32,747 nt of DNA. Origin: Deltaproteobacteria bacterium (GTDB taxonomy: Bacteria; Myxococcota_A; UBA9160; SZUA-336). Under the pieces are notes generated by a model, which saw only the letters and a program-made list of their open reading frames with translations, searched no databases and was not told the DNA's origin. Shown here piece by piece: positions 7,995 to 25,189 of the stretch (its first letter is position 1; the number at the start of each line of letters is the position of its first letter). The DNA lies in the NCBI GenBank assembly GCA_019311115.1, contig JAFDDB010000025.1, positions 1 through 32,747 of the forward strand. Direction: 5' to 3'. Both the position numbers and the translations under genes were made by a program.

Positions 7995-8903
7995 TTAGCC
8001 GCCGGGCTTCTCCTTCTCCACCCGGGGACTTCCCCAGAAGCGGAGCGGAACCTCGAGATCCAGGAAGCCCTCGACCCGTCGCACGCGTTCGGACACCACC
8101 TTCATCCAGTACTGCGTTCCGTCGTGCACCGCGCGGGTGCGCTCCTCGACCGTCAGGTAGGCGACGTCCGAAGGGTTGTAGAGGACGCCGTCGGCGGCGA
8201 GCCGCCGTCCGATCTCGGCACTGCAACGCTGCTCGAACGCGATTGCCGCGCGCACGCGGGCATCGGCGCGAAACGCCTCTTCGCCGAGCATCCGGAGCGA
8301 GAAGTACGGCATGAGAAGCTCCACCCAGGCCCGCTCGTCGAGCAGGCCACGCGAGAGCTCGGCCGTCGCGCGGTCGCGCCAGTCGCCGTCGATCGCGTCG
8401 GCGAGCAGGGCCTCGCCGGTGTCCTCCGCGCGCTGCAACCGGGCCAGCAGCCGCCCGCGACGCATGCGCACCCGGAACGACTCCCAGAGCTCCGGAAGCC
8501 GGCCGAAGCCCGTGTCGGGGAGACCGGCGAGCGCGGGATCCGGAGGCTCGCCGGTCAGGTTGGCGCGCAGCCTCTCCCAGGCATGCGCGTTCAGCGCGAT
8601 CCGCCCGTAGTGGAGGGAGACCTGGCGCTCCGGACGATGCCGCGCCAACAGACCGAGCCCTTCCCAGATGCGCCCGAGCGCGCGGTCCATCGGCCGGACC
8701 AGGCGCGAAGCCATCGCCGGGGTCGCGACCCCGTCGAGAGGAGACGCGAGCGGCTCCCGCGTCTGGCACGGGTAGACGGGATCGGGAGGGGTCGTGACGG
8801 GATACGCCGGGTCGGCGAACTCGTCGGGCTCGATGCGCCCCCCCACGTCTGGCGCAGCGTCGGACTCCGCGTCGGACTCGAGCGCTTCCCCCCCAGGATG
8901 CAT
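7995..8903 (-). CDS. hypothetical protein (acidic, Pro-rich N-terminus; no family recognised)
   Basis: 302-aa ORF with a protein-like composition (W/Y/F present: LYNPSDVAYLTVEERTRAVHDGTQYWMKVVSERV). It sits co-directionally between the Cys-peptidase and YkgJ genes with short gaps. The start is uncertain; an internal Met (MASRLVRPMDRAL, about 8714) is possible. The antisense + ORF 8124..9146 is Arg-rich junk. Confidence 0.45.
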   Translation of the reverse strand: MHPGGEALESDAESDAAPDVGGRIEPDEFADPAYPVTTPPDPVYPCQTREPLASPLDGVATPAMASRLVRPMDRALGRIWEGLGLLARHRPERQVSLHYGRIALNAHAWERLRANLTGEPPDPALAGLPDTGFGRLPELWESFRVRMRRGRLLARLQRAEDTGEALLADAIDGDWRDRATAELSRGLLDERAWVELLMPYFSLRMLGEEAFRADARVRAAIAFEQRCSAEIGRRLAADGVLYNPSDVAYLTVEERTRAVHDGTQYWMKVVSERVRRVEGFLDLEVPLRFWGSPRVEKEKPGG

Positions 8904-8955: not shown

Positions 8956-9630
8956 TCAGTCGGCTGCGGCGACCGGGGCGGGGCCGACCACGCGGCGCCG
9001 GACCTCGAAGTGGGCCGCCTCGTCGAACAACTCGATCGGCTTCCAGTTCGAGACCGCGGAGAGACGCACCATCTTCGGCGTCACGACTCCCGTCGGGTCG
9101 AGCAGGAACGGATCGTCCGTCCGCCCACGCTCGAACCAGAGCGTGACCATGTGGTGCTGGCCCGTGCCTTCCTCGACGATGATCGCGCGGTAGATCTCGT
9201 CCGGCTCGAAGCCGAGCCGGCGGAGCAGCACGAACGTCAGCAGGTCGAGGCCGTCGCAGTCGTCGGCGCCGGTCTCCACCACCTCGCCGAGCGTCGCCCA
9301 GTGGTCGGTCGCGCCGTCCGGCTCGTAGTGGTCGCGGCTGTGCTCCTGCACCCAGTTCACGGCGTCCGCTGCGATCTTCCTGCGCAGGCCCTGCGTGAAG
9401 GAGTCGTACTTCTCGGCCAGATCGGACGAGTCGCGCGGAGTCTCGCCCCGGACCGCCGGGTCCAGGTGATGACGCGCCTGCCAGTTCTCGATCTTGCGGC
9501 TCCACGGGTTCGACTCCGGGGCCGGCGAGAAGAAGTCGAGCGCGATCAAGGGGAAAGCCGGCGAAGTCGCGCACGACGTCAGCGCCAGGCCGGTCACACA
9601 GATGGCGATGCAGGTGCTGCGCAGAAACAT
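8956..9630 (-). CDS. transglutaminase-like cysteine peptidase lipoprotein (BTLCP/LapG-like fold)
   Basis: I chose the ATG at 9630 (MFLRSTCIAICVTGLALTSCAT: signal peptide plus lipobox LTSC) with GAGG 5 nt upstream. Cys motif GADDCDGLDLLTFVLLRRLGF, His motif GQHHMVTLWFE and a downstream Asp (DDPFLLD) fit a transglutaminase-like Cys-His-Asp core. Confidence 0.65.
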   Translation of the reverse strand: MFLRSTCIAICVTGLALTSCATSPAFPLIALDFFSPAPESNPWSRKIENWQARHHLDPAVRGETPRDSSDLAEKYDSFTQGLRRKIAADAVNWVQEHSRDHYEPDGATDHWATLGEVVETGADDCDGLDLLTFVLLRRLGFEPDEIYRAIIVEEGTGQHHMVTLWFERGRTDDPFLLDPTGVVTPKMVRLSAVSNWKPIELFDEAAHFEVRRRVVGPAPVAAAD

Positions 9631-9821
9631 CTCAGCCTCGTCCACTCGTAGCCATTTGCACCCTCTCGAAGAGAAGGATTCGGCCTTTTCGGACCCGGGC
9701 TTGAGGCGTCGCGCGTGCGCAGCTGTACCGGGGAGACGCGCGCGCGGACGGGCGGAGACACGCGCGCCAGACGAACTCGGGGCGCGCGCGGGGCGCGGCG
9801 CGCGATCAGGTGGTCAGCCGG

Positions 9822-11081
9822 TCAGAAGTAGGCTTCTACCGACAGGATGAGCAGGCCGGGCGTGTCGCCAAAGTCGTTCTTCTCGTCGGCGCGGCCGACG
9901 AAGAGCTGGCCGCCCACCGAGATCACCAGGTCCGCCCAGGGCGAGAAGCTGAGAGACGGCGCGAACGCCGCGCTGGCGCCGTTCCAGTCGTACAGCACCA
10001 CGGCGCTTCCCGTAAGCAGGGGGTGGAACTCGTAGCTCAGCACGATGCCGGTCTGGTGCTCGTTCACCGTGGTGATGCGGTCGAGCAGCGGAAGCTGGCC
10101 CCGTGCGATCGCACGGATCACGCGGTCCGAGTCGAAGGGCGGCGCGGGGCTGCCGACTTCGAGCGAGTCGAAGGTGTGCTCGTTGTACAGGTACTCGACC
10201 ACGGCGTAGACGCCGTTGCCGACGTCGAAGTTGTAGTCGATCGACGCGACCGCCTGCCAGACGTGGCCGCCCCGGTCGAGGTCGGTGTACGTGGCCTCGC
10301 CCCGGATCGCGGCGTCGCCCAGGTTCGAGGCGAAGTCAGCACCCACGACCCAGTCCTTGCGGAAGCGCCCGACCATGACGCCCGCATCCAGCGCGGGAGC
10401 CTCGTAGTCGACGCGTCCCGCCATGCGGTGCTCGTCGGGGTCGTCCTGGGGCGACCAGATCGCCGACGCCCACAGGCTGTCCGCCAGCCTCACGCGCCCG
10501 ACCGCCGCGTCCTGGCCGATCCGCTGGTCACTCTCGATGGCGAGCGGGAAGATCGGGTTGAACAGGTCTTCGGGGTTCCACAGGCGGCCCCGCCCCAGCG
10601 CGATGCGCTGGCGGCCCAGCGTCAACTCGACGCCATCTCCCTCGAAGCGCACCCAGGCGCGGTAGATCGAGTGCCGCCAGTGGGCGTCGGAGTGCACCGA
10701 GTAGGTGCGGTCCCAATTCAGCCAGGTCTGCGTACCGATCTGTTCGGCCACCGCGAGGCCGAGCGAGTCCAGGAACGTGCCGTTGCGCATCTCGTTGTCG
10801 TAGACGAACTGCGCCGAGACCTTGTCCTTCCACGCCCCCTCCGCCTCGATTCGCGCCCGCGTCAGCAGTCCCCAGCTGTCGCTGCGATGCGCCTGGAACG
10901 GCAGGGCCTCGACGAAGTCCTCGGTCGTGACCGTGCGCGTGAAGGTGTAGAGCGACTTGACGCTTCCGTTCAGCTCCATGCGGAAGTCGCCCCGGTCGAA
11001 CTCGGCTCCGAGAACGGGACCCGCTGCGAGCACGCCGCAGAGCGGGAGCAGAACGGCGCGCAGACGTACTCCGGGACTCAC
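9822..11081 (-). CDS. outer-membrane beta-barrel protein (last gene of the ABC/LolA-like operon)
   Basis: 419 aa. Signal peptide MSPGVRLRAVLLPLCGVLAAGPVLGAEF, alternating amphipathic strands rich in Y/W/G, and a C-terminal aromatic residue (...LSVEAYF). Overlaps the ATPase stop by 4 nt. Confidence 0.7.
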   Translation of the reverse strand: MSPGVRLRAVLLPLCGVLAAGPVLGAEFDRGDFRMELNGSVKSLYTFTRTVTTEDFVEALPFQAHRSDSWGLLTRARIEAEGAWKDKVSAQFVYDNEMRNGTFLDSLGLAVAEQIGTQTWLNWDRTYSVHSDAHWRHSIYRAWVRFEGDGVELTLGRQRIALGRGRLWNPEDLFNPIFPLAIESDQRIGQDAAVGRVRLADSLWASAIWSPQDDPDEHRMAGRVDYEAPALDAGVMVGRFRKDWVVGADFASNLGDAAIRGEATYTDLDRGGHVWQAVASIDYNFDVGNGVYAVVEYLYNEHTFDSLEVGSPAPPFDSDRVIRAIARGQLPLLDRITTVNEHQTGIVLSYEFHPLLTGSAVVLYDWNGASAAFAPSLSFSPWADLVISVGGQLFVGRADEKNDFGDTPGLLILSVEAYF

Positions 11082-11770
11082 GGGCGGCTCTCGTCGCTCG
11101 CAATCCGGCCGTCTACGAGTTGCACGATGCGGCGCGCGCGGTCCATCACGCGCCGGTCGTGCGTGCTGAACAGGAAGGTGACGCCGCGCTCGCCGTTCAT
11201 GCGCAGCATCAGGTCGAGCAGGCTCTCCGCGGTACGGGAGTCGAGATTCGCTGTGGGCTCGTCGGCGAGCACGATGCTGGGATTCGACGCGATCGCCCGG
11301 GCCACCGCCACGCGCTGCTGCTGGCCGCCGCTCATCTCGGTCGGACGCTTGGCAAGCAGGTCTCCGAGGCCGAGTTCGACGAGCACCTCTTCGGCGCGGG
11401 CCCGCCGCTCGCGCGCGCCGAGGCCTTGGAGCAGCAGCACGAACTCGACGTTCTCCGTCGCCGACAAGACGGGAATCAGGTTGTAGGACTGGAAGATGAA
11501 GCCGAGCTTCTCCAGTCTGAGATCGGAGCGCTCGGCCTCGCTCATCGCCGTGACGTCGTCGCCGTCGATCCGCACGATTCCGCTCGTCGGCGCGTCGATC
11601 GTGCCGAGCATGTTGAGCAGCGTCGTCTTGCCCGATCCGGACGGCCCGGCCAGCGCGCTGAACTCGCCCCGCGTGACGTCGAGCGACACGTCGTCGAGTG
11701 CCCGCGTCGTGACCGCCCGGGTCTCGTAGTCCTTGGTCACGTTCACGGCCTGCATGACCGCGTCGGCCAT
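11078..11770 (-). CDS. ABC transporter ATP-binding protein (LolD/MacB-type)
   Basis: Walker A GPSGSGKTT, ABC signature MSGGQQQRVAVARA, Walker B IVLADEPT and H-loop FSTHD are present. I chose the ATG at 11770 (MADAVMQAVNV...) with GGAGG 5 nt upstream; the track ORF starts 10 codons earlier. Confidence 0.85.
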   Translation of the reverse strand: MADAVMQAVNVTKDYETRAVTTRALDDVSLDVTRGEFSALAGPSGSGKTTLLNMLGTIDAPTSGIVRIDGDDVTAMSEAERSDLRLEKLGFIFQSYNLIPVLSATENVEFVLLLQGLGARERRARAEEVLVELGLGDLLAKRPTEMSGGQQQRVAVARAIASNPSIVLADEPTANLDSRTAESLLDLMLRMNGERGVTFLFSTHDRRVMDRARRIVQLVDGRIASDESRP

Positions 11771-11810
11771 CACGTCCTCCCCATCACGTTCTCCCGTCAC
11801 GTTCGCCCCG

Positions 11811-13028
11811 TCACGCCCGGCGGAGGGCCTCGGCCGGGCGCATCCGAATCGCGCGCACGCCGGGCCAGACGGCCGCGACCACGCCGGTCACGAGTGCTAG
11901 CGCGAGCGGCGTGAGCGCGTCCTCCCACCCGGCGTGCAGGAACACCCGCGTGCCGATGCCGTAGCTCTCGAGTGCGTCGGAGAACATGCTCAGGTCGATT
12001 CCGCGCTTGCCGAGCCAGCCGACCAGCGCAAAGCCGGTGCCGAGTCCGATGCCCGTGCCCGCGAGCGTCAGCGCCGCCGACTCGAGCGCGATCAGCATCA
12101 TCAGCCGAGCGCGCGAGAGGCCGAGCGAACGCATCACCCCGAACTCGCGCAGCCGCTCGTACACCGCCATGAGCATGGTGTTCGCGATGCCGAACGCCAT
12201 GGCGACGAAGACCGTGGCGTAGAAGATCCAGGACAGGTCTCCCATCAGGTCGAGCATCGAGGCGAGCCGCCGCGCGCGCTCGCGCCAGGTCAGCACCTCG
12301 ACGCCCGAACCGAGCGCCTCCTGCAACCTCGCCTGGACGGCGTCGACCGTCTTCTCGTCGTCGAGCACGATGGCGACCTCGGTCGCCGCATCGCCGACGC
12401 CGAACAGCCGCTGCGCATCGCGAAGGCGCAGGAATACCGCGACTCCGTCGAACTCCGACGAGGCGGTGCGGTACAGGCCACTCACGCGGAACGCGCCGAG
12501 CCCCGCGTCGCCGGGCACGTGGAGCACGAGCTTGTCGCCGATCTCCGCGCGCATCTCGCCGGCCATCTTCACGCCGATCACCACCGGAGGAAGACGCCGC
12601 GCGCCGGAGCCCGTGCGCAGGAAGCTCCCCTCGACGATCGAGGAAGGGACGACCGACACCTCCGCCTCGTCGCCCGGACGGACGCCGATCATCACCGCGA
12701 GCACGCTCTTGCGGGCGGTCTGGACGAGCCCTTCCCCGCGAAGACGCGGCGAGGCATGGACTCCGGCCTGCGACCGCGCCGTCTTCGCGATCGCGTCGTA
12801 GTCCGGCAGGTTGTACCGCACGTCGGGATTGTCCCGGTAGCCCGGCGCCTGGACCGCCATGTGTGCGAGCTGGATCTTCACGGCGTTGTCCGCCATCTGG
12901 TGCACGAGGCCCTTGCTCCAGGCCACCACGAAGAGGCAGCCGCTCAAGCCCACGCCGATGCTCAGCAACACGATCAGCGAGCGGCGCCAGCCACGCGCGA
13001 CGTTCCGCACGGCGATGCGAAGCAGCAC
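11811..13028 (-). CDS. ABC transporter permease, FtsX-like (MacB/LolC-type), copy 1
   Basis: 405 aa. N-terminal TM helix, large periplasmic domain, C-terminal FtsX 3-TM bundle (FGIANTMLMAVYERLREFGVMRSLG). Confidence 0.8.
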   Translation of the reverse strand: MLLRIAVRNVARGWRRSLIVLLSIGVGLSGCLFVVAWSKGLVHQMADNAVKIQLAHMAVQAPGYRDNPDVRYNLPDYDAIAKTARSQAGVHASPRLRGEGLVQTARKSVLAVMIGVRPGDEAEVSVVPSSIVEGSFLRTGSGARRLPPVVIGVKMAGEMRAEIGDKLVLHVPGDAGLGAFRVSGLYRTASSEFDGVAVFLRLRDAQRLFGVGDAATEVAIVLDDEKTVDAVQARLQEALGSGVEVLTWRERARRLASMLDLMGDLSWIFYATVFVAMAFGIANTMLMAVYERLREFGVMRSLGLSRARLMMLIALESAALTLAGTGIGLGTGFALVGWLGKRGIDLSMFSDALESYGIGTRVFLHAGWEDALTPLALALVTGVVAAVWPGVRAIRMRPAEALRRA

Positions 13029-13029
13029 T

Positions 13030-14268
13030 TCAGGCCTCTCGCAGCGCGTCTACCGGGCGTCCGCGCGACGCCCGGAACGCGGGCGGAAGCGCAGCCAGCA
13101 GCGCCACGCCGACCAGGACCCCCGCCATGAGCACGAGCTGGCCCGCGTGCATGCGGAAGACGAGCAGCGCCTCTACGCCGAAGAGTTCCAGCGCCTCCGT
13201 CGCGCTCTCGCCCATCTGGATCGGGTGCTGCTCGAGCCACAGCGTGAGCGGGATGCCGATCGCGAAGCCGATCACGAGGCCGATCGCCGACATGAGCAGC
13301 GCTTCGATCACGACCAGGCCGAAGATGCGCCGGGGCCGAACGCCCATCGCGCGCATCACGCCGAACTCCCGCACGCGCTCGAGCACCGACATGAGGATCG
13401 TGTTGAGCAGCCCGAAGGCGACGACGACCAGCAGGACCGACAGGGTCAGGTAGCCGCCCAGGTCGTCGAGCACGATCAGCTGGTACAGGTCCGGCAGCAG
13501 CTCGGGCCAGGCCAGCACCTCGTAGGCGTCGCGGGAGAAGACGCGGTCGAGCTCGGCGCGCACGGCTTCGACCTGGCTCGGGTCCGACGCGAAGGCCGCG
13601 ACGTGCGACAGGCCGCCCGGATACTCGACGAACCGCCGCAGGTCGTCCAGCTCGACGATGGCCGCGTACCCGTCGATCGTGTCGTCGCCGACCTCGAGCG
13701 TTCCCGCCACGCGGAACCGCTCGGCCGACTGCGACCCGTAGTAGTCCGCGGCCAGCAGGATCATGGAGTCGCCTGCGGCCACCCCCAGGTTCTCGGCGAG
13801 CCGCCTCCCGAGCACCACGTTGCGTTCTTCCGGTTCTCCGGAGAGGAGTCCCCCCTCGCGCACGAAGCGCCCGATGCGCGTCAGCGGCCCCTCGCGTGCC
13901 GGGTCCAGGCCGATGACCTGTGCGGCGCGGCCCGTGCTGTCGTCGCGGTCGGGAATGGCGAGCGCCCAGGCCTCGAGCCGCGGCGCCCAGCCGTCGATCC
14001 CCGGGATGCGGTCGAGCGCCGCCGTCTGCGCCTCGGAGAGCGTCATGCCGTAGTCGAGAGTGCGGTGGTCGCGGTAGCCCTGCGCCATGACTTCGACGTG
14101 GCCCGGGTAGAGCCGCACGATGTGCTCGACCCAGCGGTCGTGACTGCCGGCGGCGGCGGCGAGCGTGATCAGCGTCAGCACGACCGCGAAGACCGCGGCG
14201 GCCGAGGTGAGCACGGTGCGGCGCGGCTGGCGGCCCAGGTTCCGCCACGCGATCCGCAGCAGCAGCAT
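13030..14268 (-). CDS. ABC transporter permease, FtsX-like, copy 2
   Basis: I chose the ATG at 14268 (MLLLRIAWRNLGR...), which overlaps the stop of the LolA-like gene (ATGA). Same architecture as copy 1 (LLNTILMSVLERVREFGVMRAMG). The first 44 codons of the track ORF lie inside the upstream gene. Confidence 0.8.
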   Translation of the reverse strand: MLLLRIAWRNLGRQPRRTVLTSAAAVFAVVLTLITLAAAAGSHDRWVEHIVRLYPGHVEVMAQGYRDHRTLDYGMTLSEAQTAALDRIPGIDGWAPRLEAWALAIPDRDDSTGRAAQVIGLDPAREGPLTRIGRFVREGGLLSGEPEERNVVLGRRLAENLGVAAGDSMILLAADYYGSQSAERFRVAGTLEVGDDTIDGYAAIVELDDLRRFVEYPGGLSHVAAFASDPSQVEAVRAELDRVFSRDAYEVLAWPELLPDLYQLIVLDDLGGYLTLSVLLVVVAFGLLNTILMSVLERVREFGVMRAMGVRPRRIFGLVVIEALLMSAIGLVIGFAIGIPLTLWLEQHPIQMGESATEALELFGVEALLVFRMHAGQLVLMAGVLVGVALLAALPPAFRASRGRPVDALREA

Positions 14269-15059
14269 CAACGCGCGGCCTCCGACCGCTTCAGGTTCGA
14301 CTGCGTGAAGATCGAGTCCGCGAGGTCGCGGTCGAACTCGATCTCGTCCAGCGTGATCTCGGTCATGTGCCCCGGCTTGTCGATCGGCTCCATCGACCAC
14401 TGGTGCGGCACGTTGCGTCCGTCGACGCGGCGCACGTCCGAGAAGCGCATGCGGCGGATCAGCTCGAACTCGCCGGGCTTGTCCTCGTCATAGTACAGGA
14501 AGAGGAACGGGGCGTGCGCGTCGGCCGTGATCCACGCCTCGATCTTCGCCCAGACGACGGGCGCGTCCTCGTGGGGAACCAGCAGCACGCCGAGCACCTG
14601 CGTGCCCTCGATCTCGCGCGCCCCGATTACGCTCGCCTCGTAGTCGTCGACCATCGAGGAGTCGCGCGCCAGGTCGTCGTTGGTGAAGTCACTCCCCATC
14701 CAGGACTGCAGCATCATCGACGGCGGGATGCGCGTCGTGCGCTCGACCCGGGGGAGGTACATCCAGAGCGTGTTGGCCAGCCGCAGGAACCCCGTCCCCT
14801 TGTCCTTCCGCGGCGCGAGGATGCGAGTCAGGCTGCGGTCGTTCCGGCCGTCGTCCCACGACCGGAAGCTCAAGGTCCGCTCCCAGCGCGGCGTGGTGAT
14901 GTGCATCGTCGCCTTCATCTGCGCCGTGTCGCCGCGCATCGAGTCCTCGGCCAGCTTGACGATCGCCGCGGCGTCGAGCCCCTCGTAGGAGGGGTCGGCA
15001 GCATGGGCCGCGGATGGAAGCAGGACCAGCAGGAGCGCGAACGCCAGGCTAATCATCAT
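14268..15059 (-). CDS. LolA-like outer-membrane lipoprotein-sorting family protein (periplasmic)
   Basis: Start MMISLAFALLLVLLPSAAHA (signal peptide) at 15059, with GGGAG upstream. Resembles the LolA_like/DUF-type proteins that accompany MacB-type ABC transporters. The track ORF carries a 29-codon Arg-rich extension. Confidence 0.7.
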   Translation of the reverse strand: MMISLAFALLLVLLPSAAHAADPSYEGLDAAAIVKLAEDSMRGDTAQMKATMHITTPRWERTLSFRSWDDGRNDRSLTRILAPRKDKGTGFLRLANTLWMYLPRVERTTRIPPSMMLQSWMGSDFTNDDLARDSSMVDDYEASVIGAREIEGTQVLGVLLVPHEDAPVVWAKIEAWITADAHAPFLFLYYDEDKPGEFELIRRMRFSDVRRVDGRNVPHQWSMEPIDKPGHMTEITLDEIEFDRDLADSIFTQSNLKRSEAAR

Positions 15060-16182
15060 CTTGCCCACTCCCTTCTCCCGTCGGCCTGCCAGGCTTGTCA
15101 GGCTTGTCCGACTCGTCCGGCTCCTCGCCGCGCGCCAGCGCCGCAATGCCGGAGATGGCGCCGAGACCCATCGTCTCGACGGCCGAGCTCGGTACGATGA
15201 TCATCGAACCCCGCTGGCGGATTCCCTCGTAGACCATGTTCATGGCGCGAAGGTGCAGCGCCTCGGGGTTGCCGCGGTACTGGGCCGCAGCCTCGGCGAA
15301 CTTCCCCGCGATCTCGGCCTCGGCCGTGGACAGGATCACCCGGGCCTGGCGCTCGCGCTCGGCTTGCGCGCGCTTCGACATCGCCTCTTCGAGCCCCTCG
15401 GGAAGCACCACGTCGGTGATCTCGATCGACTGGATGGTGATGCCCCAGGCGTTCGTCTTCTCGTCCAGCGCCTTCTGGATCTCGGCCCCGAGCTTCTGGC
15501 GGTTGCTCAGCAGGTCGGCCAGCTCGTGTTTGCCGACGGCATCCTTCAGCGCCGTCTGCGCCGACAGGATGACGGCGCTCTGGTAGCTCTCGAGCTCGAG
15601 CACCGCCTTCTCGGCGTCCCAGACCAGCCAGAAGCAGATGGCGTCGACGTAGAGCGGGACGGTGTCGAGCGTCAGGATCCTCTCGGCGCGGAAGTCGGTG
15701 GCGCGCACGCGCTGGTCCACGAAGGCCTCGATCCGGTCGATGAAGGGCGCCATGACGAACAGCCCCGGCCCGCGCAGGCCGCGGAACTCGCCGAGCCTCA
15801 GCAGGATGGCCTTGTCCCAGTGGCTCACGACCTGCACCGACGCCGCGACGGCGGCGGAGAGGCCGAGGCCCGCCACCACGGCGATCGTGTTCTCGCCGGG
15901 GTAGGCGATGCCGAGCGCGATCCCGACCAGCAGCATGGCCCCGAGGACCTGGTCCCAGCGACGGCCCACGTGGATCATGCCGAGCGCGAACAGCGCGGCC
16001 ACGCCGGTCGCCACCGCGAACTCGGGCGGCAGCTCGCCCCGGCTGGCCAGCGCGCCGGCCGTCAATCCGATGCCCGCGAGCAGGACGAACGAGTTGAGCG
16101 GTCCCCACGCAAAGTGGGGCTGGAACATCGGCAGCAGTGCGAGGCGTTGCAGGGTTTGACGGCCCTCGTCGATCTTCGACAT
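15049..16182 (-). CDS. SPFH/band-7 (stomatin/prohibitin-like) protein with N-terminal polytopic membrane domain
   Basis: 377 aa. About 120 aa of TM helices, then an SPFH core (LTLDTVPLYVDAICFWLVWDAEKAV...ITIQSIEITDVVLPE...AERERQARVILSTAEAEIA) and an acidic tail (EPDESDKPDKPGRPTGEGSGQDDD). Confidence 0.85.
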   Translation of the reverse strand: MSKIDEGRQTLQRLALLPMFQPHFAWGPLNSFVLLAGIGLTAGALASRGELPPEFAVATGVAALFALGMIHVGRRWDQVLGAMLLVGIALGIAYPGENTIAVVAGLGLSAAVAASVQVVSHWDKAILLRLGEFRGLRGPGLFVMAPFIDRIEAFVDQRVRATDFRAERILTLDTVPLYVDAICFWLVWDAEKAVLELESYQSAVILSAQTALKDAVGKHELADLLSNRQKLGAEIQKALDEKTNAWGITIQSIEITDVVLPEGLEEAMSKRAQAERERQARVILSTAEAEIAGKFAEAAAQYRGNPEALHLRAMNMVYEGIRQRGSMIIVPSSAVETMGLGAISGIAALARGEEPDESDKPDKPGRPTGEGSGQDDD

Positions 16183-16183
16183 C

Positions 16184-16582
16184 TCACTCCTCCCTGGCGG
16201 ACTGGAGGGCGACGATCAGCTCGTCGAGGTCGATGCCGTAGGAGCCCGCGCGCCCCACGACATCGCGGCACAGACCTTCCAGCAGCCGCGCCCTCTCGTC
16301 GTCCGTGATGGTGACGTCCGCTTCGCTGATGAAGGTGCCCGTGCCCTGCTGGGTCTCGAGGTTCCCGCGGATCTCGAGCTCCTTGTAGGACTTGATCACG
16401 GTGTTCGGGTTGACCGACAGCTCGACCGCAAGCTGGCGGACGGTGGGCAGCTGGCTGCCCGGCTTCAGCTCACCCCGCGCGATCGCGTAGCGGATCTGGG
16501 AGATGATCTGGCGGTAGATGGGCACGCCCGAGTGGTGGTCGAGCGTGATGTTGAACTCGCGCAGGGCCGGCGGCGCTTTCAT
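16184..16582 (-). CDS. GntR-family transcriptional regulator, short YtrA-like subfamily (no effector domain)
   Basis: 132 aa. Winged HTH SQLPTVRQLAVELSVNPNTVIKSYKELEIRGNLETQQGTGTFI. Its stop is 2 nt before the SPFH start. It is the first gene of a seven-gene minus-strand operon. Confidence 0.85.
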   Translation of the reverse strand: MKAPPALREFNITLDHHSGVPIYRQIISQIRYAIARGELKPGSQLPTVRQLAVELSVNPNTVIKSYKELEIRGNLETQQGTGTFISEADVTITDDERARLLEGLCRDVVGRAGSYGIDLDELIVALQSAREE

Positions 16583-16615
16583 TGCGGGCGGTCTCGCCTC
16601 GGGGATCTCCGGGTG

Positions 16616-16647
16616 TTCTATTTAGCTAGTACACTATCGAAATAGAA
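16616..16647. promoter_or_regulatory. perfect inverted repeat TTCTATTT-N16-AAATAGAA in an AT-rich island; candidate GntR/YtrA operator and divergent promoter region
   Basis: The sequence ttctatttagctagtacactatcgaaatagaa lies about 35 nt upstream of the gntR start and about 100 nt upstream of ileS. It is conspicuously AT-rich in a ~70% GC context. Confidence 0.5.
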
Positions 16648-16746
16648 GCAAGCCTGGGCTGCCCGCGCAGCCGCCCGCGCCGCCCGGGTTTGTCTCGCCG
16701 CGACGGGCTCGATAGCCTGTCGCTCTTCCGCCGCCCGGAGCGCTCC

Positions 16747-19914
<3,168 letters not shown>

Positions 19915-19932
19915 GCCGCGGGGGGAGCCTTC

Positions 19933-20607
19933 TTGCCGCGCAGACACCTCATCCGACGGGAGACGGCGGGCTCGATCCTGCTGGCGAGCCTCTTGCTGCT
20001 GGTGCTCGTCGTGCCGATCGCCGTAGGGGGCGACCGCTCGGAGAGCGTCCTGCGCACGGCTCTCGGTTTTACGGCGATCGCCTGTGTCGGGCTCCTGTCC
20101 AACGTGCGGTGGGCGCTCTTCGCGATGGTCGCGCTCGCGCTCGTGCACGAGGCTCTCCACCTGCCCGAGCCGCCCTTGATCACGGCGCTGCAATCCCAGG
20201 TGGTGGTCGCGCTTCAGCTGGCCCTGATCGCGGGCTTCGTGGTGCGGCACCTGATGCGCGTGCGCCAGGCCACGGCCGACACGGTGGCGAGCGCGGTCAG
20301 CGGCTACCTGCTACTCGCCATGCTCTGGGCCACCTTCTACTCGATCGCCGAGCTGGCGTCGCCGGGATCCTTCCTGGTCCACGACGTGTCGGTGAGCCAG
20401 CACCCGATGGGGCACTCGACCTTCTTCTACTTCAGCCTGGTGACGATCTCGACGCTCGGGTTCGGCGACATCGTCCCCGCCACGCCGCGTGCGGGTCTGC
20501 TCACGGCGCTCGAGTCGGTCGTCGGGCAGTTCTACATCGCGATCCTGGTCGCCCGCATCGTGGCCCTGCAGGTCGTAGCGCGTCGGGACGCGAGTCCGGC
20601 CGACTGA
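19933..20607 (+). CDS. ion-channel protein (Ion_trans_2; K+-channel-like pore TLGFGD)
   Basis: 224 aa, several TM helices, and a selectivity-filter-like pore loop FFYFSLVTISTLGFGDIVP. TTG start preceded by GGGGGAG. Confidence 0.6.
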   Translation: MPRRHLIRRETAGSILLASLLLLVLVVPIAVGGDRSESVLRTALGFTAIACVGLLSNVRWALFAMVALALVHEALHLPEPPLITALQSQVVVALQLALIAGFVVRHLMRVRQATADTVASAVSGYLLLAMLWATFYSIAELASPGSFLVHDVSVSQHPMGHSTFFYFSLVTISTLGFGDIVPATPRAGLLTALESVVGQFYIAILVARIVALQVVARRDASPAD

Positions 20608-21524: not shown

Positions 21525-21989
21525 CAGCCGCCGCGCGAGGTCGCTGCTGGAGTGCGTCTTCTCGTCGCCGCAGAAGGCGATCCGCCCTCCGTAGCGCTCG
21601 ACGATGGAGCGCTCGGGCACGCTGCCCACATCGCGGTCCATTCCCTTGATCTGGACGTCCGGCCGCAGGGCCTCGAGCAGCGGACCGGCCGTCGGCTCGG
21701 GAAAGCTGGTCACGTAGTCGATGCCAGCGATCGCCGCGACCACCTCCATGCGCTCGGCGAGCGGCACCAGGGGACGCCCGTCGCCCTTGCTCTCGCGCAC
21801 GCTCTCGTCGGTGTTGAGCGCGACCACGAGCACGTCGGCTTCTGTGCGGGCGTCGGCCAGCAGCCTCACGTGCCCCACGTGGATCAGGTCGAAGCAGCCG
21901 TTGGCCACGGCGACGGTGCGACGGTCCGACCGCTCATCCTCGAGCCTCGGACCCAGGTCGTGGTAGTCGAGAACGATGCGAGCACTCAC
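21513..21989 (-). CDS. D-glycero-beta-D-manno-heptose-1-phosphate adenylyltransferase (HldE domain II / RfaE-II, stand-alone)
   Basis: I chose the GTG at 21989 (GTGA overlap with the heptosyltransferase stop). VAVANGCFDLIHVGHVRLLADA ... ALNTDESVRESKGDGRPLVPLAERMEVVAAIAGIDYVTSF aligns along its length with E. coli HldE C-terminal domain, and the (T/H)xGH motif is present. Confidence 0.85.
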   Translation of the reverse strand: MSARIVLDYHDLGPRLEDERSDRRTVAVANGCFDLIHVGHVRLLADARTEADVLVVALNTDESVRESKGDGRPLVPLAERMEVVAAIAGIDYVTSFPEPTAGPLLEALRPDVQIKGMDRDVGSVPERSIVERYGGRIAFCGDEKTHSSSDLARRLRGG

Positions 21990-23053
21990 GATAGAAGCTC
22001 CTCTCCAGCCCGGACCACGCGCTCGGGGGAGAGACGCGTCATGCAGCGATGGTCGATCGGGCAGACCTTCAGGTGACAGGGACTGCAGTCGACGTCCTCT
22101 CGCAGAACGCGCTGCCGCTCGAGCAGGTGCGCGGTGTGCCGGGGATCCGTCGGACCCATCACCACCACGACCGGCGTGCCGCACGCAACCGCGATGTGGC
22201 GCGGTCCCGTGTCGTTGGTGAGCAGCAGCCGGGCGTCGTCGATCAACGCCGCCAGCGCCGCGAGACCCGTGACCGGATCCACCAGTGCGACGGGCTTCTC
22301 CTGCATCCGCTCGGCGATCGCCGCCACGATGGGCTCCTCTCCTGGTCCGGGCGCCAACACCGTGCGCAATCCGAGTTCGCGGGCGAGGCGGTCGCAGGCC
22401 TCGGCAAAGTGCTCGGCGGGCCAGAGCTTGCTCGCGCCGAAGTTGGCGCCTGGAGTCACCACCACGTACCCGGCCGCGTCCCGCATGCCGGCCGCCTCGA
22501 GGCGCGCGCGCACGGCGCTCCGCGTAGACTCGTCGATCGCCACGTCGAGTTCCTCGCCCGCGTCCGCGCAGCCGAGTTCGCGCGTGAGGCGCAGGTAGCG
22601 CTCGATCATCGAGACCGGAACCCGCTTGCCGTCGACGCTCGGAGGCTCGAGGCTCCGGGTCAGCAGCGCCCGGCGCAGCGGATCGCGCGCGTAGCCGACG
22701 CGGACGGGGATGCGCGCCAGGAACGGAGCCGCGGCCGCTCGCGCAGAGTCGGGCAGCAGGACCGCCCAGTCGAAGCGCTCCCTTCGCAGGCGGGCGGCGC
22801 GCGAGAGCACGCCGCGCCCGTCGTCTTCGAGGAACGCGTCCACGGTCGGGAGGCCGTCTACCAGCTCGCGTATGAACGCGCGCGCCTCGAACACGATCTC
22901 GGCCTGAGGATGCGCCGTCTTCAGCGCGCGCAGCGCCGGCGTCGCCATCACCACGTCCCCCACCCAGGTGGGCGCGCGGACCAGGATCCGAGCCGGCGCG
23001 GCCTGCGCGGCCGGCGCGGACGGCTCAGAGGAAGTAGTCGCCCCGCTCCTCAC
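21986..23053 (-). CDS. ADP-heptose:LPS heptosyltransferase (glycosyltransferase family 9, WaaF/WaaC-like)
   Basis: 355 aa. ILVRAPTWVGDVVMATPALRAL ... LLTNDTGPRHIAVACGTPVVVVMGPTDP are GT9 hallmarks. The GTG start at 23053 overlaps the radical-SAM gene end by 29 nt. Confidence 0.8.
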   Translation of the reverse strand: MRSGATTSSEPSAPAAQAAPARILVRAPTWVGDVVMATPALRALKTAHPQAEIVFEARAFIRELVDGLPTVDAFLEDDGRGVLSRAARLRRERFDWAVLLPDSARAAAAPFLARIPVRVGYARDPLRRALLTRSLEPPSVDGKRVPVSMIERYLRLTRELGCADAGEELDVAIDESTRSAVRARLEAAGMRDAAGYVVVTPGANFGASKLWPAEHFAEACDRLARELGLRTVLAPGPGEEPIVAAIAERMQEKPVALVDPVTGLAALAALIDDARLLLTNDTGPRHIAVACGTPVVVVMGPTDPRHTAHLLERQRVLREDVDCSPCHLKVCPIDHRCMTRLSPERVVRAGEELLS

Positions 23054-24248
23054 CCGGCTCGATCTCCGCGTCTCCCCGAGGGTCCTCGATCATCTTCTCG
23101 AGCCACCAGTTGACGCCGTTGTAGAGGCAGGTGACCTGGGCGCACTCGTTGCTGGCGTCGAAGGTGTCGAGGATGCGCGCCAGGTCGCCGCCGGTCGACG
23201 CCGCCTGGCTCTCGTCGGCCCAGGCGCGTGGACTGCCGATCTTGGCCTTCTCGACTCCCCGGTGCGCCGGGCAGTTGTACAGCCCCGTCGGTGTCAGCAC
23301 CTGGCGAAGCGCCTGCATGTGGCAGACGCGCGGCTGCTTGGTGAAGTCGCGCCAGTTTCCCTGCTCGAGCAGGCGCAGGTTGGTGCTCTCGTAGACCTCG
23401 AAGCCGTCCGTCTCCAGCTCCTTGGCGCGGTCGACGCCGGCACGGATGCGCGCGACGACCTCCGCGGTCTGGCTCGCGGTCTTGTCGGGGTCCATCACCT
23501 CGGCGCCCGAGTCCTGCCGTTCGAGTACCGGCTTGTACGCGATGTAGTCGAACTCGAACCTGCGCGCGCGCTCCGCGGCCATCACGATCTCATCGATGTT
23601 CTCGTGGAGTTGCTCGCCTTCGCGCGAAGCGCCGCCCCACACGATGATGTACGAGAAGCCGACGCGGACCTCGGGGTTCGCCGCCTTGATCTTCGGCACC
23701 CACTCGCAGACGAAGTCGAGGTCGCACTTCTTGTTGACGGGCTTGTGCATGGCCAGGAACAGCTCGTTGCTGCCCGAGTCGAGCGACAGGCGGATCCAGT
23801 CGCGCGAGTCCATGTGGCGGGCGGCCTCGATCAGCCGGTCGCCGCGGCTGCCGTTCGAGACGATCGAGACCTGGAGCTTCAGCGACTTCAGGAACTCGAT
23901 GAAGCCTACGAAGCCCGGGAACAGGGTGGGCTCGCCGCCGCCGATCACGATGACCGACTTGAGACCCCGCTGGCTCATCAGCTCGATCGACGAGCGGAGG
24001 TCCTCTTCGCGGTGCTTGTCCGCGGTGTTCAGGATGTCCCAGTCGATGCAGTGCGTGCAGCGGTAGTTGCACGCCGTCGTCAGGTCGAGGTTGATCGAGA
24101 TCGGCGCGATGTCGGGCGCCGTCGGCTCGTCCTCGCCCGCGGCGCGGGCGCGCGCGACGGCGCGCCGCCACGTGACGTACTCCTGGACCAGGGGCGACAC
24201 GGACGGCTGGCGCAGCTTGCCCGTGAAGTCGTGGATTGCGTGCGTCAA
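23025..24248 (-). CDS. radical SAM enzyme (CxxxCxxC; subfamily not assigned)
   Basis: 407 aa. CNYRCTHC cluster-binding motif, SAM-binding VIVIGGGEPTLFP, and four additional C-terminal Cys (VCHMQ, YNCPAH, CAQVTC). TTG start overlaps the oxidoreductase stop (TTGA). Confidence 0.8.
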   Translation of the reverse strand: MTHAIHDFTGKLRQPSVSPLVQEYVTWRRAVARARAAGEDEPTAPDIAPISINLDLTTACNYRCTHCIDWDILNTADKHREEDLRSSIELMSQRGLKSVIVIGGGEPTLFPGFVGFIEFLKSLKLQVSIVSNGSRGDRLIEAARHMDSRDWIRLSLDSGSNELFLAMHKPVNKKCDLDFVCEWVPKIKAANPEVRVGFSYIIVWGGASREGEQLHENIDEIVMAAERARRFEFDYIAYKPVLERQDSGAEVMDPDKTASQTAEVVARIRAGVDRAKELETDGFEVYESTNLRLLEQGNWRDFTKQPRVCHMQALRQVLTPTGLYNCPAHRGVEKAKIGSPRAWADESQAASTGGDLARILDTFDASNECAQVTCLYNGVNWWLEKMIEDPRGDAEIEPGEERGDYFL

Positions 24249-25189
24249 ACAGCCTCTCCTCGGTAGGCGGCGACCAGGCTCTCGAGCATCTGCATGCGCT
24301 GTGCGATCTGCCAGGACTCGGGGTCCGGCACGGCCGCTTCGAGTGCCCTCACAAAGCGCTCCAGCAGGGTTCGCAATGGATCCGAAAGCGCGACGGACCG
24401 GTCTTCGGCCGCGAAGAGCATAGAATAGTCCGACTTTCGCACCAACCGCTCCGCGCTCTTCCCGTTGATGGAGAGAGACGCCCTGCGCGGGACGCTTTCG
24501 CCTCGCTCCAGGCGGACCGAGACCGGCGCGGCCACGCTCCCGGCGCGGTAGACGAAGCGCACGACCACCGCCTCTGGCTCAGTCCCGGTCGCGAATCCGG
24601 GGTCTTCCAGCCTCGCGTCGCGGTCGGGGGCGAGCGCCTGCAGGAGGCTCAGGGGGTGGGAGAGGCTGTCGACGAGCATCTGCTCGCCATGGCTCTCGGG
24701 CGAAAGTCGCATCTCGAACCGCTCCAGCGGAGCCGAGACCGTGCCCGGGTGGAGCGACTCGAAGGCCGCCAGCGTGCAGGGCCACTGGCAGTTCTCGACC
24801 AGCACCCGTCCGCGGTCGGCAAAGCTCCGGACCAGGTCCGCCGCGCGCTCGGCCGACCCGACTCCGCTCCAGATCAGCGGCTTCTCGCACAGCACGTGCA
24901 GCCCGCAGTCGAGCGCGCGGCGCAGGTGCGCCTCGTGCGTCTCGACGGGGGACAGGATCGCCAGCGCGTCGAGCGACTCGGCCGCGAAGAGCGCGTCGGG
25001 GTCGGCGTACGCGCGCACGTCGATCCCCTGGTCCCGAAGCTCGGCGCGCGCCTGCTCGGCGGTGTCAGCGCTCGTGCCGAGCACACAGGTCACGTCGGCG
25101 CCGAGTGCGGCGAGGTCGCGCGCCACGAACGGGCCGAGGCCCTGGCGCACGCGCCGCGCGCCGACCAGCCCGATGCGCGGGCCGCTCAC
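24245..25189 (-). CDS. Gfo/Idh/MocA-family NAD(P)-dependent oxidoreductase
   Basis: I chose the GTG at 25189 (overlaps the NUDIX stop, GTGA). N-terminal Rossmann RIGLVGARRVRQGLGPF, the family's EKP motif in LHVLCEKPL, and a C-terminal alpha/beta domain. The upstream 212 codons of the track ORF are Arg-rich and lie inside the NUDIX gene. Confidence 0.7.
   Translation of the reverse strand: MSGPRIGLVGARRVRQGLGPFVARDLAALGADVTCVLGTSADTAEQARAELRDQGIDVRAYADPDALFAAESLDALAILSPVETHEAHLRRALDCGLHVLCEKPLIWSGVGSAERAADLVRSFADRGRVLVENCQWPCTLAAFESLHPGTVSAPLERFEMRLSPESHGEQMLVDSLSHPLSLLQALAPDRDARLEDPGFATGTEPEAVVVRFVYRAGSVAAPVSVRLERGESVPRRASLSINGKSAERLVRKSDYSMLFAAEDRSVALSDPLRTLLERFVRALEAAVPDPESWQIAQRMQMLESLVAAYRGEAV

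Follow-up and report, generated by a model that had tools for sequence, protein, structure and literature searches.

The contig JAFDDB010000025.1 of a metagenome-assembled Deltaproteobacteria bacterium genome (GCA_019311115.1), analysed here as one stretch of 32,747 nt and called the window in the following, carries on its minus strand a locus of seven genes (9822–16582). These encode, in reading order, a short GntR-type regulator, a membrane protein of the SPFH (band-7) type, a LolA-like protein, two FtsX-type permeases, an ATP-binding cassette (ABC) ATPase and an outer-membrane barrel (Table 1). All seven open reading frames (ORFs) are present and have coding-type G+C contents at third codon positions (GC3 0.89–0.94) in a window of about 70% G+C, so that the co-directional gene set described in a sequence-only reading of this DNA stands. 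The domain calls made there were also borne out by Pfam and NCBIfam assignments.

Table 1. Features of the seven-gene locus and of the region upstream of the GntR gene, with positions in the window.
Feature	Position	Strand	Remarks
GntR	16184-16582	minus	PF00392 only, 132 aa; best NCBIfam matches PmtR, Rv1152
SPFH/slipin	15049-16182	minus	Band_7, 377 aa
LolA_like	14268-15059	minus	PF17131, E = 3e-50, 263 aa
FtsX1 permease	13030-14268	minus	MacB_PCD and FtsX
FtsX2 permease	11811-13028	minus	MacB_PCD and FtsX
ATPase	11078-11770	minus	ABC_tran 2.6e-34, LolD/MacB-type, 230 aa from ATG at 11770
Barrel	9822-11081	minus	419 aa, no Pfam family, C-terminus ...VEAYF
Predicted YtrA-type operator	16612-16635	minus	24-mer AGTGTACTAGCTAAATAGAACACC, conserved across the GntR family; 20-nt core 16614-16633
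Palindrome of the sequence-only reading	16616-16647	none	15-nt arms, 2-nt spacer, 87% arm complementarity

The genes are closely packed, and it is very likely that they form one transcript. One nucleotide separates GntR from SPFH and also FtsX1 from FtsX2, LolA_like and FtsX1 overlap by 1 nt (TGATG), ATPase and barrel by 4 nt (GTGA), and SPFH and LolA_like by 11 nt (8 nt if counted from the second ATG). The SPFH/LolA_like overlap is thus larger than the 0 to 4 nt given earlier for the junctions, and the gap of about 40 nt that had been placed beside the first permease was found after the second, where 40 nt lie between FtsX2 and the ATPase gene. This gap (11771–11810, minus strand) consists of three tandem near-repeats, GAACGTGACGGGA, GAACGTGATGGGGA and GGACGTGATGG; the third provides the ribosome-binding site and ATG of the ATPase gene, for which several in-frame GTG and ATG codons would be alternative starts. 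A sigma-70 promoter scan of 9400–16900 gave zero promoter-like sites, a scan of this kind being uninformative in a genome of 70% G+C, and a terminator scan of the same interval gave two terminator-like matches, both between the GntR and IleRS genes, against a chance expectation of 1.7. Rfam and tRNA scans of the whole window returned no matches.

The regulator is composed of a winged helix (PF00392, residues 23–85) and a C-terminal region of about 47 aa. Its best matches in the Protein Data Bank (PDB), aligned over nearly the full length, were 3neu (Lin1836), 3by6, 4ham, 6sbs (a 121-residue 'Regulatory protein') and 4r1h; these are short YtrA-type structures of 113–134 aa, including Lmo2241 and Lmo0741. 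A winged helix followed by a very short C-terminal region of about 50 aa with two helices is the architecture of the YtrA subfamily and was found here, which upholds the earlier assignment of the regulator to that type. YtrA regulators have been described as first genes of operons with ABC transporters or one membrane protein, with an operator of about 24 bp (PMC6746942), and the present locus, with GntR as its first gene and a 24-bp palindrome at its own promoter, therefore fits that description.

The predicted operator is made up of two half-sites GTGTWCTAK placed 4 nt apart, with the end of the 24-mer 29 nt and its 20-nt core 31 nt upstream of the GntR ATG. Scanning the 32.7-kb window with TGTWCTAKNNNNMTAGWACA gave the core as the sole match, with 0 mismatches and 0.04 matches expected by chance. 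Among all loci examined, the consensus palindrome aGTGTWCTAK-N4-MTAGWACACt was matched at 13 or more of its 16 specified positions in 57 of 70 GntR-upstream regions, a score reached by about 0.4% of shuffled sequences, and it lies 0–30 nt before the GntR start codon. The palindrome of the sequence-only reading does exist, with the arms reported for it, but the element conserved in the family is offset from it; the two overlap, with the centre of the former 8 nt further upstream, and it may add an upstream half-site to the predicted operator.

The SPFH protein, named 'slipin family protein' by NCBI, has its Band_7 domain at residues 119–289 of 377 (E 4.7e-34). Its AlphaFold model shows four N-terminal membrane helices (27–47, 53–72, 76–93 and 99–115; predicted local distance difference test score, pLDDT, 86–89 there and 69 overall), in agreement with the hydropathy profile, a long C-terminal helix region at 262–324 (helices 262–301 and 306–324), and a disordered acidic tail at 351–377 with 10 D/E versus 4 K/R. 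The polytopic N-terminus and acidic tail noticed earlier were thereby recovered. Slipins and stomatins are characterised by an N-terminal membrane anchor and by a Band_7 domain that leads into a long coiled-coil helix, and all of these features were found; four membrane helices are atypical, a single hairpin or helix being usual. Prokaryotic slipins usually adjoin an NfeD-family partner gene, whereas the neighbours in the window are GntR and LolA_like, and no NfeD gene was called beside the slipin in two of the related loci discussed below (L087 and L089). The NCBI gene model starts at an internal Met and gives 309 aa, without helices 1 and 2 and part of helix 3. Since homologues of 360–387 aa cover 90–98% of the 377-aa form, and since N30 and W76 in its N-terminal region are invariant among homologues, we consider the 377-aa form to be right.

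Module-wise, the five remaining genes have the make-up of an exporter with one component per envelope layer, and the envelope-spanning machinery proposed in the sequence-only reading is in this respect confirmed. The LolA-like protein could be assigned a profile, PF17131 (also named TP_0789-like), and has a cleavable signal peptide (...SAAHA|AD) with the lipobox cysteine absent; its start codon was read from the sequence and is the same as that of the gene called in the related contig L085. Its sequence relatives in the PDB (9tp6, 3buu, 4z48 and 3bk5) were deposited under names that give no tested function. In FtsX1, four helices span the membrane and about 220 aa make up the periplasmic domain. 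Its best PDB match was LolC (3e-24), followed by LolF and LolE, with YtrF at only 1e-11, and that of FtsX2 was LolF (2.7e-19), followed by LolC and LolE; for both permeases, YtrF and MacB were much more distant. Hydropathy placed helix 1 at about residues 15–43 and helices 2–4 at about 263–400, the four-helix topology of MacB and LolC. The hallmarks of type VII ABC transporters were thus all found: four helices, a large periplasmic domain that separates helix 1 from helix 2, and an ATPase in the cytoplasm.

Scored with the curated Lol models, the permeases reached 143.4 and 117 bits with TIGR02212 (lolCE), against a cutoff of 362.45, and the ATPase 222.7 bits with TIGR02211 (LolD), against 307.75, while the carrier matched PF17131 only and not the LolA family. 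These scores fall far below the cutoffs; the permeases and ATPase are Lol paralogues and distinct from the Lol machine proper. The partner genes of a MacAB-TolC system, encoding a membrane-fusion protein and a TolC-type channel, were absent.

For the barrel, which is identical to the product of locus JRG82_03620, structure prediction gave with high confidence an 18-stranded model with an OprD/AlgE-like fold (pLDDT 90.4, predicted template modelling score 0.85), in place of the DUF1302-like type considered earlier. The most conserved stretch of the family, GRQRIxLGxGRLWNPxDLFNP at residues 156–175, makes up in this model a structured loop of 31 residues that connects strands 5 and 6 and which by standard outer-membrane protein topology would be loop 3, the constriction loop of porins. 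Many of the invariant residues are Arg, Asp or Glu, placed two apart within strands (R75/R77, D95/E97 and R157/R159), and would therefore face the barrel lumen; invariant Arg and Asp residues are numerous in loop 3 as well. A specific channel of polar or charged character is suggested by this pattern. The top structural matches were mostly uptake channels (Occ/OprD, ChiP and maltoporin), with AlgE and Wzi nearly as good. The prediction thus agrees with OprD/Occ proteins in being a monomeric barrel of 18 strands whose constriction loop folds inwards. No OprD Pfam match was obtained, and identity to Occ structures was 7–13%. The only Pfam match was sub-threshold, to Porin_4 (E = 0.0079, 16.5 bits versus a cutoff of 27). 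The 18-stranded OprD/AlgE-type model ruled out an Omp85 protein of the BamA-TamA type (16-stranded, with or without POTRA domains), and structural comparison ruled out TolC-like, FadL-like and LptD-like proteins.

The barrel belongs to a large family. A profile search of 1.84 billion cluster representatives found 4064 clusters at E <= 1e-3 and 408 at E <= 1e-30, with no Pfam domain on record for the listed homologues; sampled relatives that had a name were all 'hypothetical protein', and the only organism given was a metagenome-assembled Terriglobia genome. Stand-alone members, 31–32% identical and lacking the upstream LolA_like/FtsX/ATPase set, were seen in L003/L004 and L057, and the barrel family is therefore not exclusive to this exporter.

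We analysed the conservation of the two parts of the locus separately. A metagenome scan with the slipin alignment confirmed 593 relatives, of which 80 loci were kept, 56 of them with enough upstream sequence to be evaluated. In 55 of these 56 loci the slipin gene is immediately preceded by a co-directional gene for a GntR homologue with 45–60% identity, and no LolA_like or FtsX gene was found downstream of the pair in them. The pair also occurs on long contigs in unrelated contexts (L087/L088 and L089). In L087 (679–9092) and L088, where the slipin is 72% identical to that of the window, it immediately follows a gene for an MMPL transporter, and a 1123-aa DUF1302 outer-membrane protein is encoded nearby; this is another lipid-transport-like neighbourhood. 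In L029 (3100–6940) the pair (77% and 67% identical to the GntR and slipin of the window) follows genes for an ABC ATPase and an ABC-2 permease on the same strand, about 6 kb from a stand-alone barrel homologue without LolA_like or FtsX genes. No literature linking GntR/YtrA regulators with slipin or SPFH proteins was found in the library searched.

The exporter genes gave the complementary picture. When a single genome of each GTDB species was scanned with the barrel alignment, 450 of the first 600 pattern matches were confirmed, so that there are at least 450 relatives; the best 80 loci were kept and the window's proteins located in them by tblastn, and 63 loci had enough upstream sequence. 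All records among the 80 are metagenomic except that of Mariprofundus sp. EBB-1 (L082). In 61 of the 63, LolA_like, FtsX, ATPase and barrel genes lie on one strand, with two FtsX genes in 44 and one in 17, and their order is that of the window except in Gallionella (L070), where the ATPase precedes the permeases. The genomes carry about ten labels at phylum or class level, comprising Myxococcota, Acidobacteriota/Terriglobia, Spirochaetes, KSB1, Nitrospirae, Opitutales and Proteobacteria classes (Gamma-, Zeta-, Alpha- and Betaproteobacteria, the Zetaproteobacteria including the cultured Mariprofundus sp. EBB-1). A GntR or SPFH gene was part of the exporter operon in none of these 61 loci.

What commonly heads the exporter elsewhere is a TetR gene. 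At least 40 of the 61 loci have it as the co-directional gene immediately before LolA_like; it was confirmed by a Pfam match for L066 and by gene calls for L172. No regulator gene stands at the head in L001, L002 and L008–L010. Full-length best matches of the TetR proteins included the efflux-pump repressors SmeT, TtgR and MtrR, together with DarR and MbdR, none reaching the family cutoff. A palindrome, TAGACTGAC-NN-GTCAGTCTA, is conserved across phyla about 10–60 nt upstream of the tetR start (L019–L064 and others, e.g. L025, L056, L078 and L051), has the variant TACCGACTRGTCRGTCGGTA in the near Myxococcota clade (L011–L017), is represented by several tandem half-sites in L007, and probably serves TetR as its operator. 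Neither a TetR gene nor a remnant of this operator was found in the window.

The complete seven-gene layout was found in four contigs, namely the window, L085, L086 and L170. L085 and L086, from two different samples, have about 90% identity to the window, whereas L170 is more distant (GntR 66%, SPFH 66%, LolA_like 65%, barrel 57% and IleRS 78% identity). The operator upstream of GntR and the 11-nt overlap of the slipin and LolA_like genes are common to all four, and in L170 the genes downstream are retained as well. The layout is therefore not a single-strain accident, a possibility raised by the sequence-only reading. A sister lineage, L172, which is as distant from the window as L170 (barrel 60%, IleRS 78%), has instead the order TetR, LolA_like, FtsX, FtsX, ATPase, barrel. 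Among the loci examined, GntR-slipin and exporter are joined only in the sub-clade of the window.

We conclude that the locus is probably a composite operon assembled from two independently conserved modules. The sequence-only reading had seen a co-evolved seven-part system with a regulator belonging to the ABC pump. This does not agree with a core that lacks GntR and SPFH in the 61 of 63 loci, nor with a GntR whose partner is the slipin in 55 of 56, and the comparison of synteny and co-occurrence that it proposed for SPFH and the exporter set finds the modules apart except in one sub-clade. The seven-gene combination is accordingly better taken as a lineage-specific swap of regulators, which we consider likely, than as a new integrated machine.

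In this composite operon Module A (16184–16635) would be an autoregulated two-gene unit, in which the YtrA-type GntR repressor binds the 24-bp palindrome upstream of its own gene and has the slipin as its constant partner. Module B (9822–15059) would be an exporter complete in itself, each envelope layer being served by one of its parts. A LolCDE-like type VII ABC machine in the inner membrane, formed by an FtsX1/FtsX2 heterodimer and two copies of the ATPase, would use ATP-driven movement of the periplasmic domains to remove its cargo, a hydrophobic or amphipathic molecule, from the outer face of that membrane. The soluble LolA-like carrier would take up the cargo, shield it across the periplasm and deliver it to the dedicated 18-stranded barrel, which would pass or present it at the outer membrane. 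We infer these transport steps from what is established for transporters of the MacB/LolCDE type.

The TetR head of Module B appears to have been replaced once by the GntR-slipin cassette, in the ancestor of the sub-clade, and to have been stably inherited in that form since, whereby control of the exporter would have passed to the YtrA-type repressor in the lineage of the window. As only the 40-nt gap between FtsX2 and the ATPase gene is non-coding from the GntR promoter region to the barrel, transcription of the exporter most probably starts at the promoter under YtrA-type control, and exporter and slipin would be produced jointly. The ligand-type TetR head in most lineages suggests that expression is induced by a small molecule, as is the case for efflux pumps. 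Module B is thus likely to export a hydrophobic or amphipathic cargo in an inducible manner, with YtrA-type control having taken over here. Considering the constant pairing of GntR with a slipin, a signal of membrane state that relieves GntR repression is plausible, if speculative.

Several observations weigh against this composite reading. An internal promoter inside the slipin gene is possible, the sigma-70 scan having found no sites anywhere in the region. The layout has been retained down to about 60–66% protein identity in L170, which could mean selection for a functional link between slipin and exporter, not a neutral swap. GntR-slipin pairs lie within 3–6 kb of barrel homologues in L029 and L066, against a rough chance expectation of about 0.3, which is a weak hint. 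The closest folds of the barrel include nutrient-uptake channels, and outward transport is argued by analogy with the type VII ABC mechanism. Finally, no cargo, biosynthetic neighbour or characterised homologue was found.

The second and third of these points, and the 11-nt slipin/LolA_like overlap conserved in L085, L086 and L170, speak for a single integrated machine of all seven proteins. In such a machine the slipin would scaffold the ABC exporter within a microdomain of the membrane, or gate it there, and the exporter would have the YtrA-type regulator as its dedicated envelope-stress switch. Regulation of transporters and proteases by SPFH proteins is known from other systems, HflK/C among them. 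Stomatin is a further example (PMC12407830). Set against this are the 61 core loci without GntR and slipin, the 55 GntR-slipin loci without the exporter, and the sister lineage L172 with TetR instead; each part thus works without the other almost everywhere, and we regard an integrated machine as unlikely.

The predominance of uptake channels among the barrel's structural matches could also be understood if the system were an importer, with a hydrophobic nutrient entering through the OprD-like channel and passing via the LolA-like protein to the ABC machine. To our knowledge, type VII (MacB/LolCDE/FtsX) ABC proteins have no transmembrane substrate path and include no known importer, and import would conflict with what is known of them. 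The operon moreover lacks a substrate-binding protein of importer type, the export and surface-assembly barrels AlgE and Wzi match nearly as well, and the TetR heads are typical of efflux systems, which makes import quite improbable. That the five core genes are the housekeeping Lol lipoprotein-sorting pathway (LolCDE with LolA) is very improbable, for although LolC, LolE, LolF and LolD are the best NCBIfam and PDB matches and the periplasmic protein falls in the LolA superfamily, the scores stay far below the Lol cutoffs (143 and 117 versus 362 bits, and 222.7 versus 307.75), the carrier matches PF17131 and not the LolA family, the operon has a porin-like barrel and its relatives an efflux-type TetR repressor, and the same operon is found on contigs labelled Proteobacteria, which would be expected to have the canonical LolABCDE.

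Returning to the composite operon, we compared its modules with known systems. With LolCDE-LolA-LolB of E. coli, which gave the best sequence matches for the window's proteins in both PDB and NCBIfam, the exporter shares a type VII ABC machine built on two distinct FtsX-type permeases, a LolD-like ATPase and a soluble carrier of the LolA superfamily. It differs in having an 18-stranded barrel in place of the lipoprotein LolB as outer-membrane partner, and in being an accessory, regulator-headed operon of patchy distribution. MacAB-TolC likewise combines an outer-membrane channel with an ABC engine of type VII whose periplasmic domain is MacB_PCD; here, however, there is no membrane-fusion protein or TolC-type channel, the ATPase is a separate polypeptide and the LolA-like protein takes the adaptor's place. 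Mla is, as are Lol and MacAB-TolC, a mechanistic relative.

The closest described analogue of the exporter is the Borrelia BBJ23-29 cluster, analysed in silico only, in which a MacB-like ABC transporter is encoded together with a LolA-like protein and an Omp85 barrel (PMC13078400, 2026). Unlike the present system, the Borrelia cluster is plasmid-borne, with a homodimeric permease, two extra chaperone genes and a barrel of Omp85 type (BBJ25), and a TetR or GntR head was not reported there. Operons of Bacteroidetes (PG1175-81), strongly induced by iron or haem limitation, encode a TetR regulator, ABC ATPases, an MMPL protein and an 'outer membrane lipoprotein-sorting protein' (PMC10434189, PMC10470040). 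They resemble the exporter operons in their TetR, their protein with a lipoprotein-sorting name, their inner-membrane engine and their adjacent hypothetical proteins, but the engine is of MMPL/RND type, not FtsX. The name 'outer membrane lipoprotein-sorting protein' is also that given by the depositors of 9tp6 and 3bk5; if the Bacteroidetes proteins belonged to the same family, the carrier would serve different inner-membrane engines. A search of the literature for LolA-like and FtsX proteins together found no papers, and one for TP0789 found only a proteome list. The LolA-like protein of a paper on limonene is unrelated.

Module A resembles the YtrA-headed operons of B. subtilis (ytrABCDEF), S. 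aureus (pmtR-pmtABCD) and Sulfolobus (ytrA-Saci_1850) in its short GntR as first gene, its long palindrome at the gene's own promoter and the membrane-protein or ABC genes downstream (PMC6746942). It is unlike them in that the conserved partner is a slipin, the ABC genes being secondary and LolC-like, and in the diderm envelope of the host.

With regard to gene neighbourhoods, no conserved neighbour that would reveal the cargo was found across phyla, and only clade-specific, housekeeping-looking ORFs recur, judged by eye to be MgtE-like, glutaredoxin-like and riboflavin-synthase-like, together with the genes dn1, dn2, CxxCxxCC and VWA. In the window, dn1 (8956–9633, minus strand) lies downstream of the barrel and encodes a predicted lipoprotein with the lipobox LTSC and a Cys/His/Asp motif recalling a transglutaminase-like peptidase, and dn2 (7995–8903, minus strand) encodes a 302-aa protein. 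Both keep their position in about 14–16 near-clade loci, with CxxCxxCC and then the VWA gene next, as in relatives. Neither gave a Pfam match even at E = 5; the dn1 lipoprotein could be a clade-specific cargo or accessory protein. Elsewhere in the window, an Ion_trans_2 channel gene directly follows IleRS (19915–20607, plus strand), and genes for a heptosyltransferase-like family 9 glycosyltransferase (21986–23089, minus strand) and a radical SAM protein (23025–24578, minus strand) are found.

A more far-reaching proposal, which we put forward tentatively and consider rather doubtful, is that the regulator-headed operons with a LolA-like protein, a type VII ABC machine and a loop-3 porin may constitute an undescribed, multi-phylum, envelope-spanning export route beside Lol, Lpt and Mla. 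Its cargo would be a small amphiphile of anionic nature, such as a lipid, a surfactant or a hydrophobic metabolite, which would travel from the inner membrane by way of the periplasmic carrier to a dedicated, substrate-specific channel in the outer membrane. In the lineage of the window these operons may in addition be wired to a slipin-coupled YtrA-type sensor of membrane state.

If the core operon is an export pathway, it would add a widespread, uncharacterised route for hydrophobic molecules across the diderm envelope, and its barrel component represents a family of about 4000 sequence clusters without a Pfam model. The occurrence of the same exporter under a TetR head, under no regulator or under a YtrA-slipin pair in close lineages provides a natural regulatory experiment. 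The GntR-slipin pair, with its sharply conserved 24-bp operator in distant bacteria, could show how bacterial SPFH proteins are regulated and what they respond to, and the exporter with its barrel family, being both widespread and uncharacterised, is worth experimental study.

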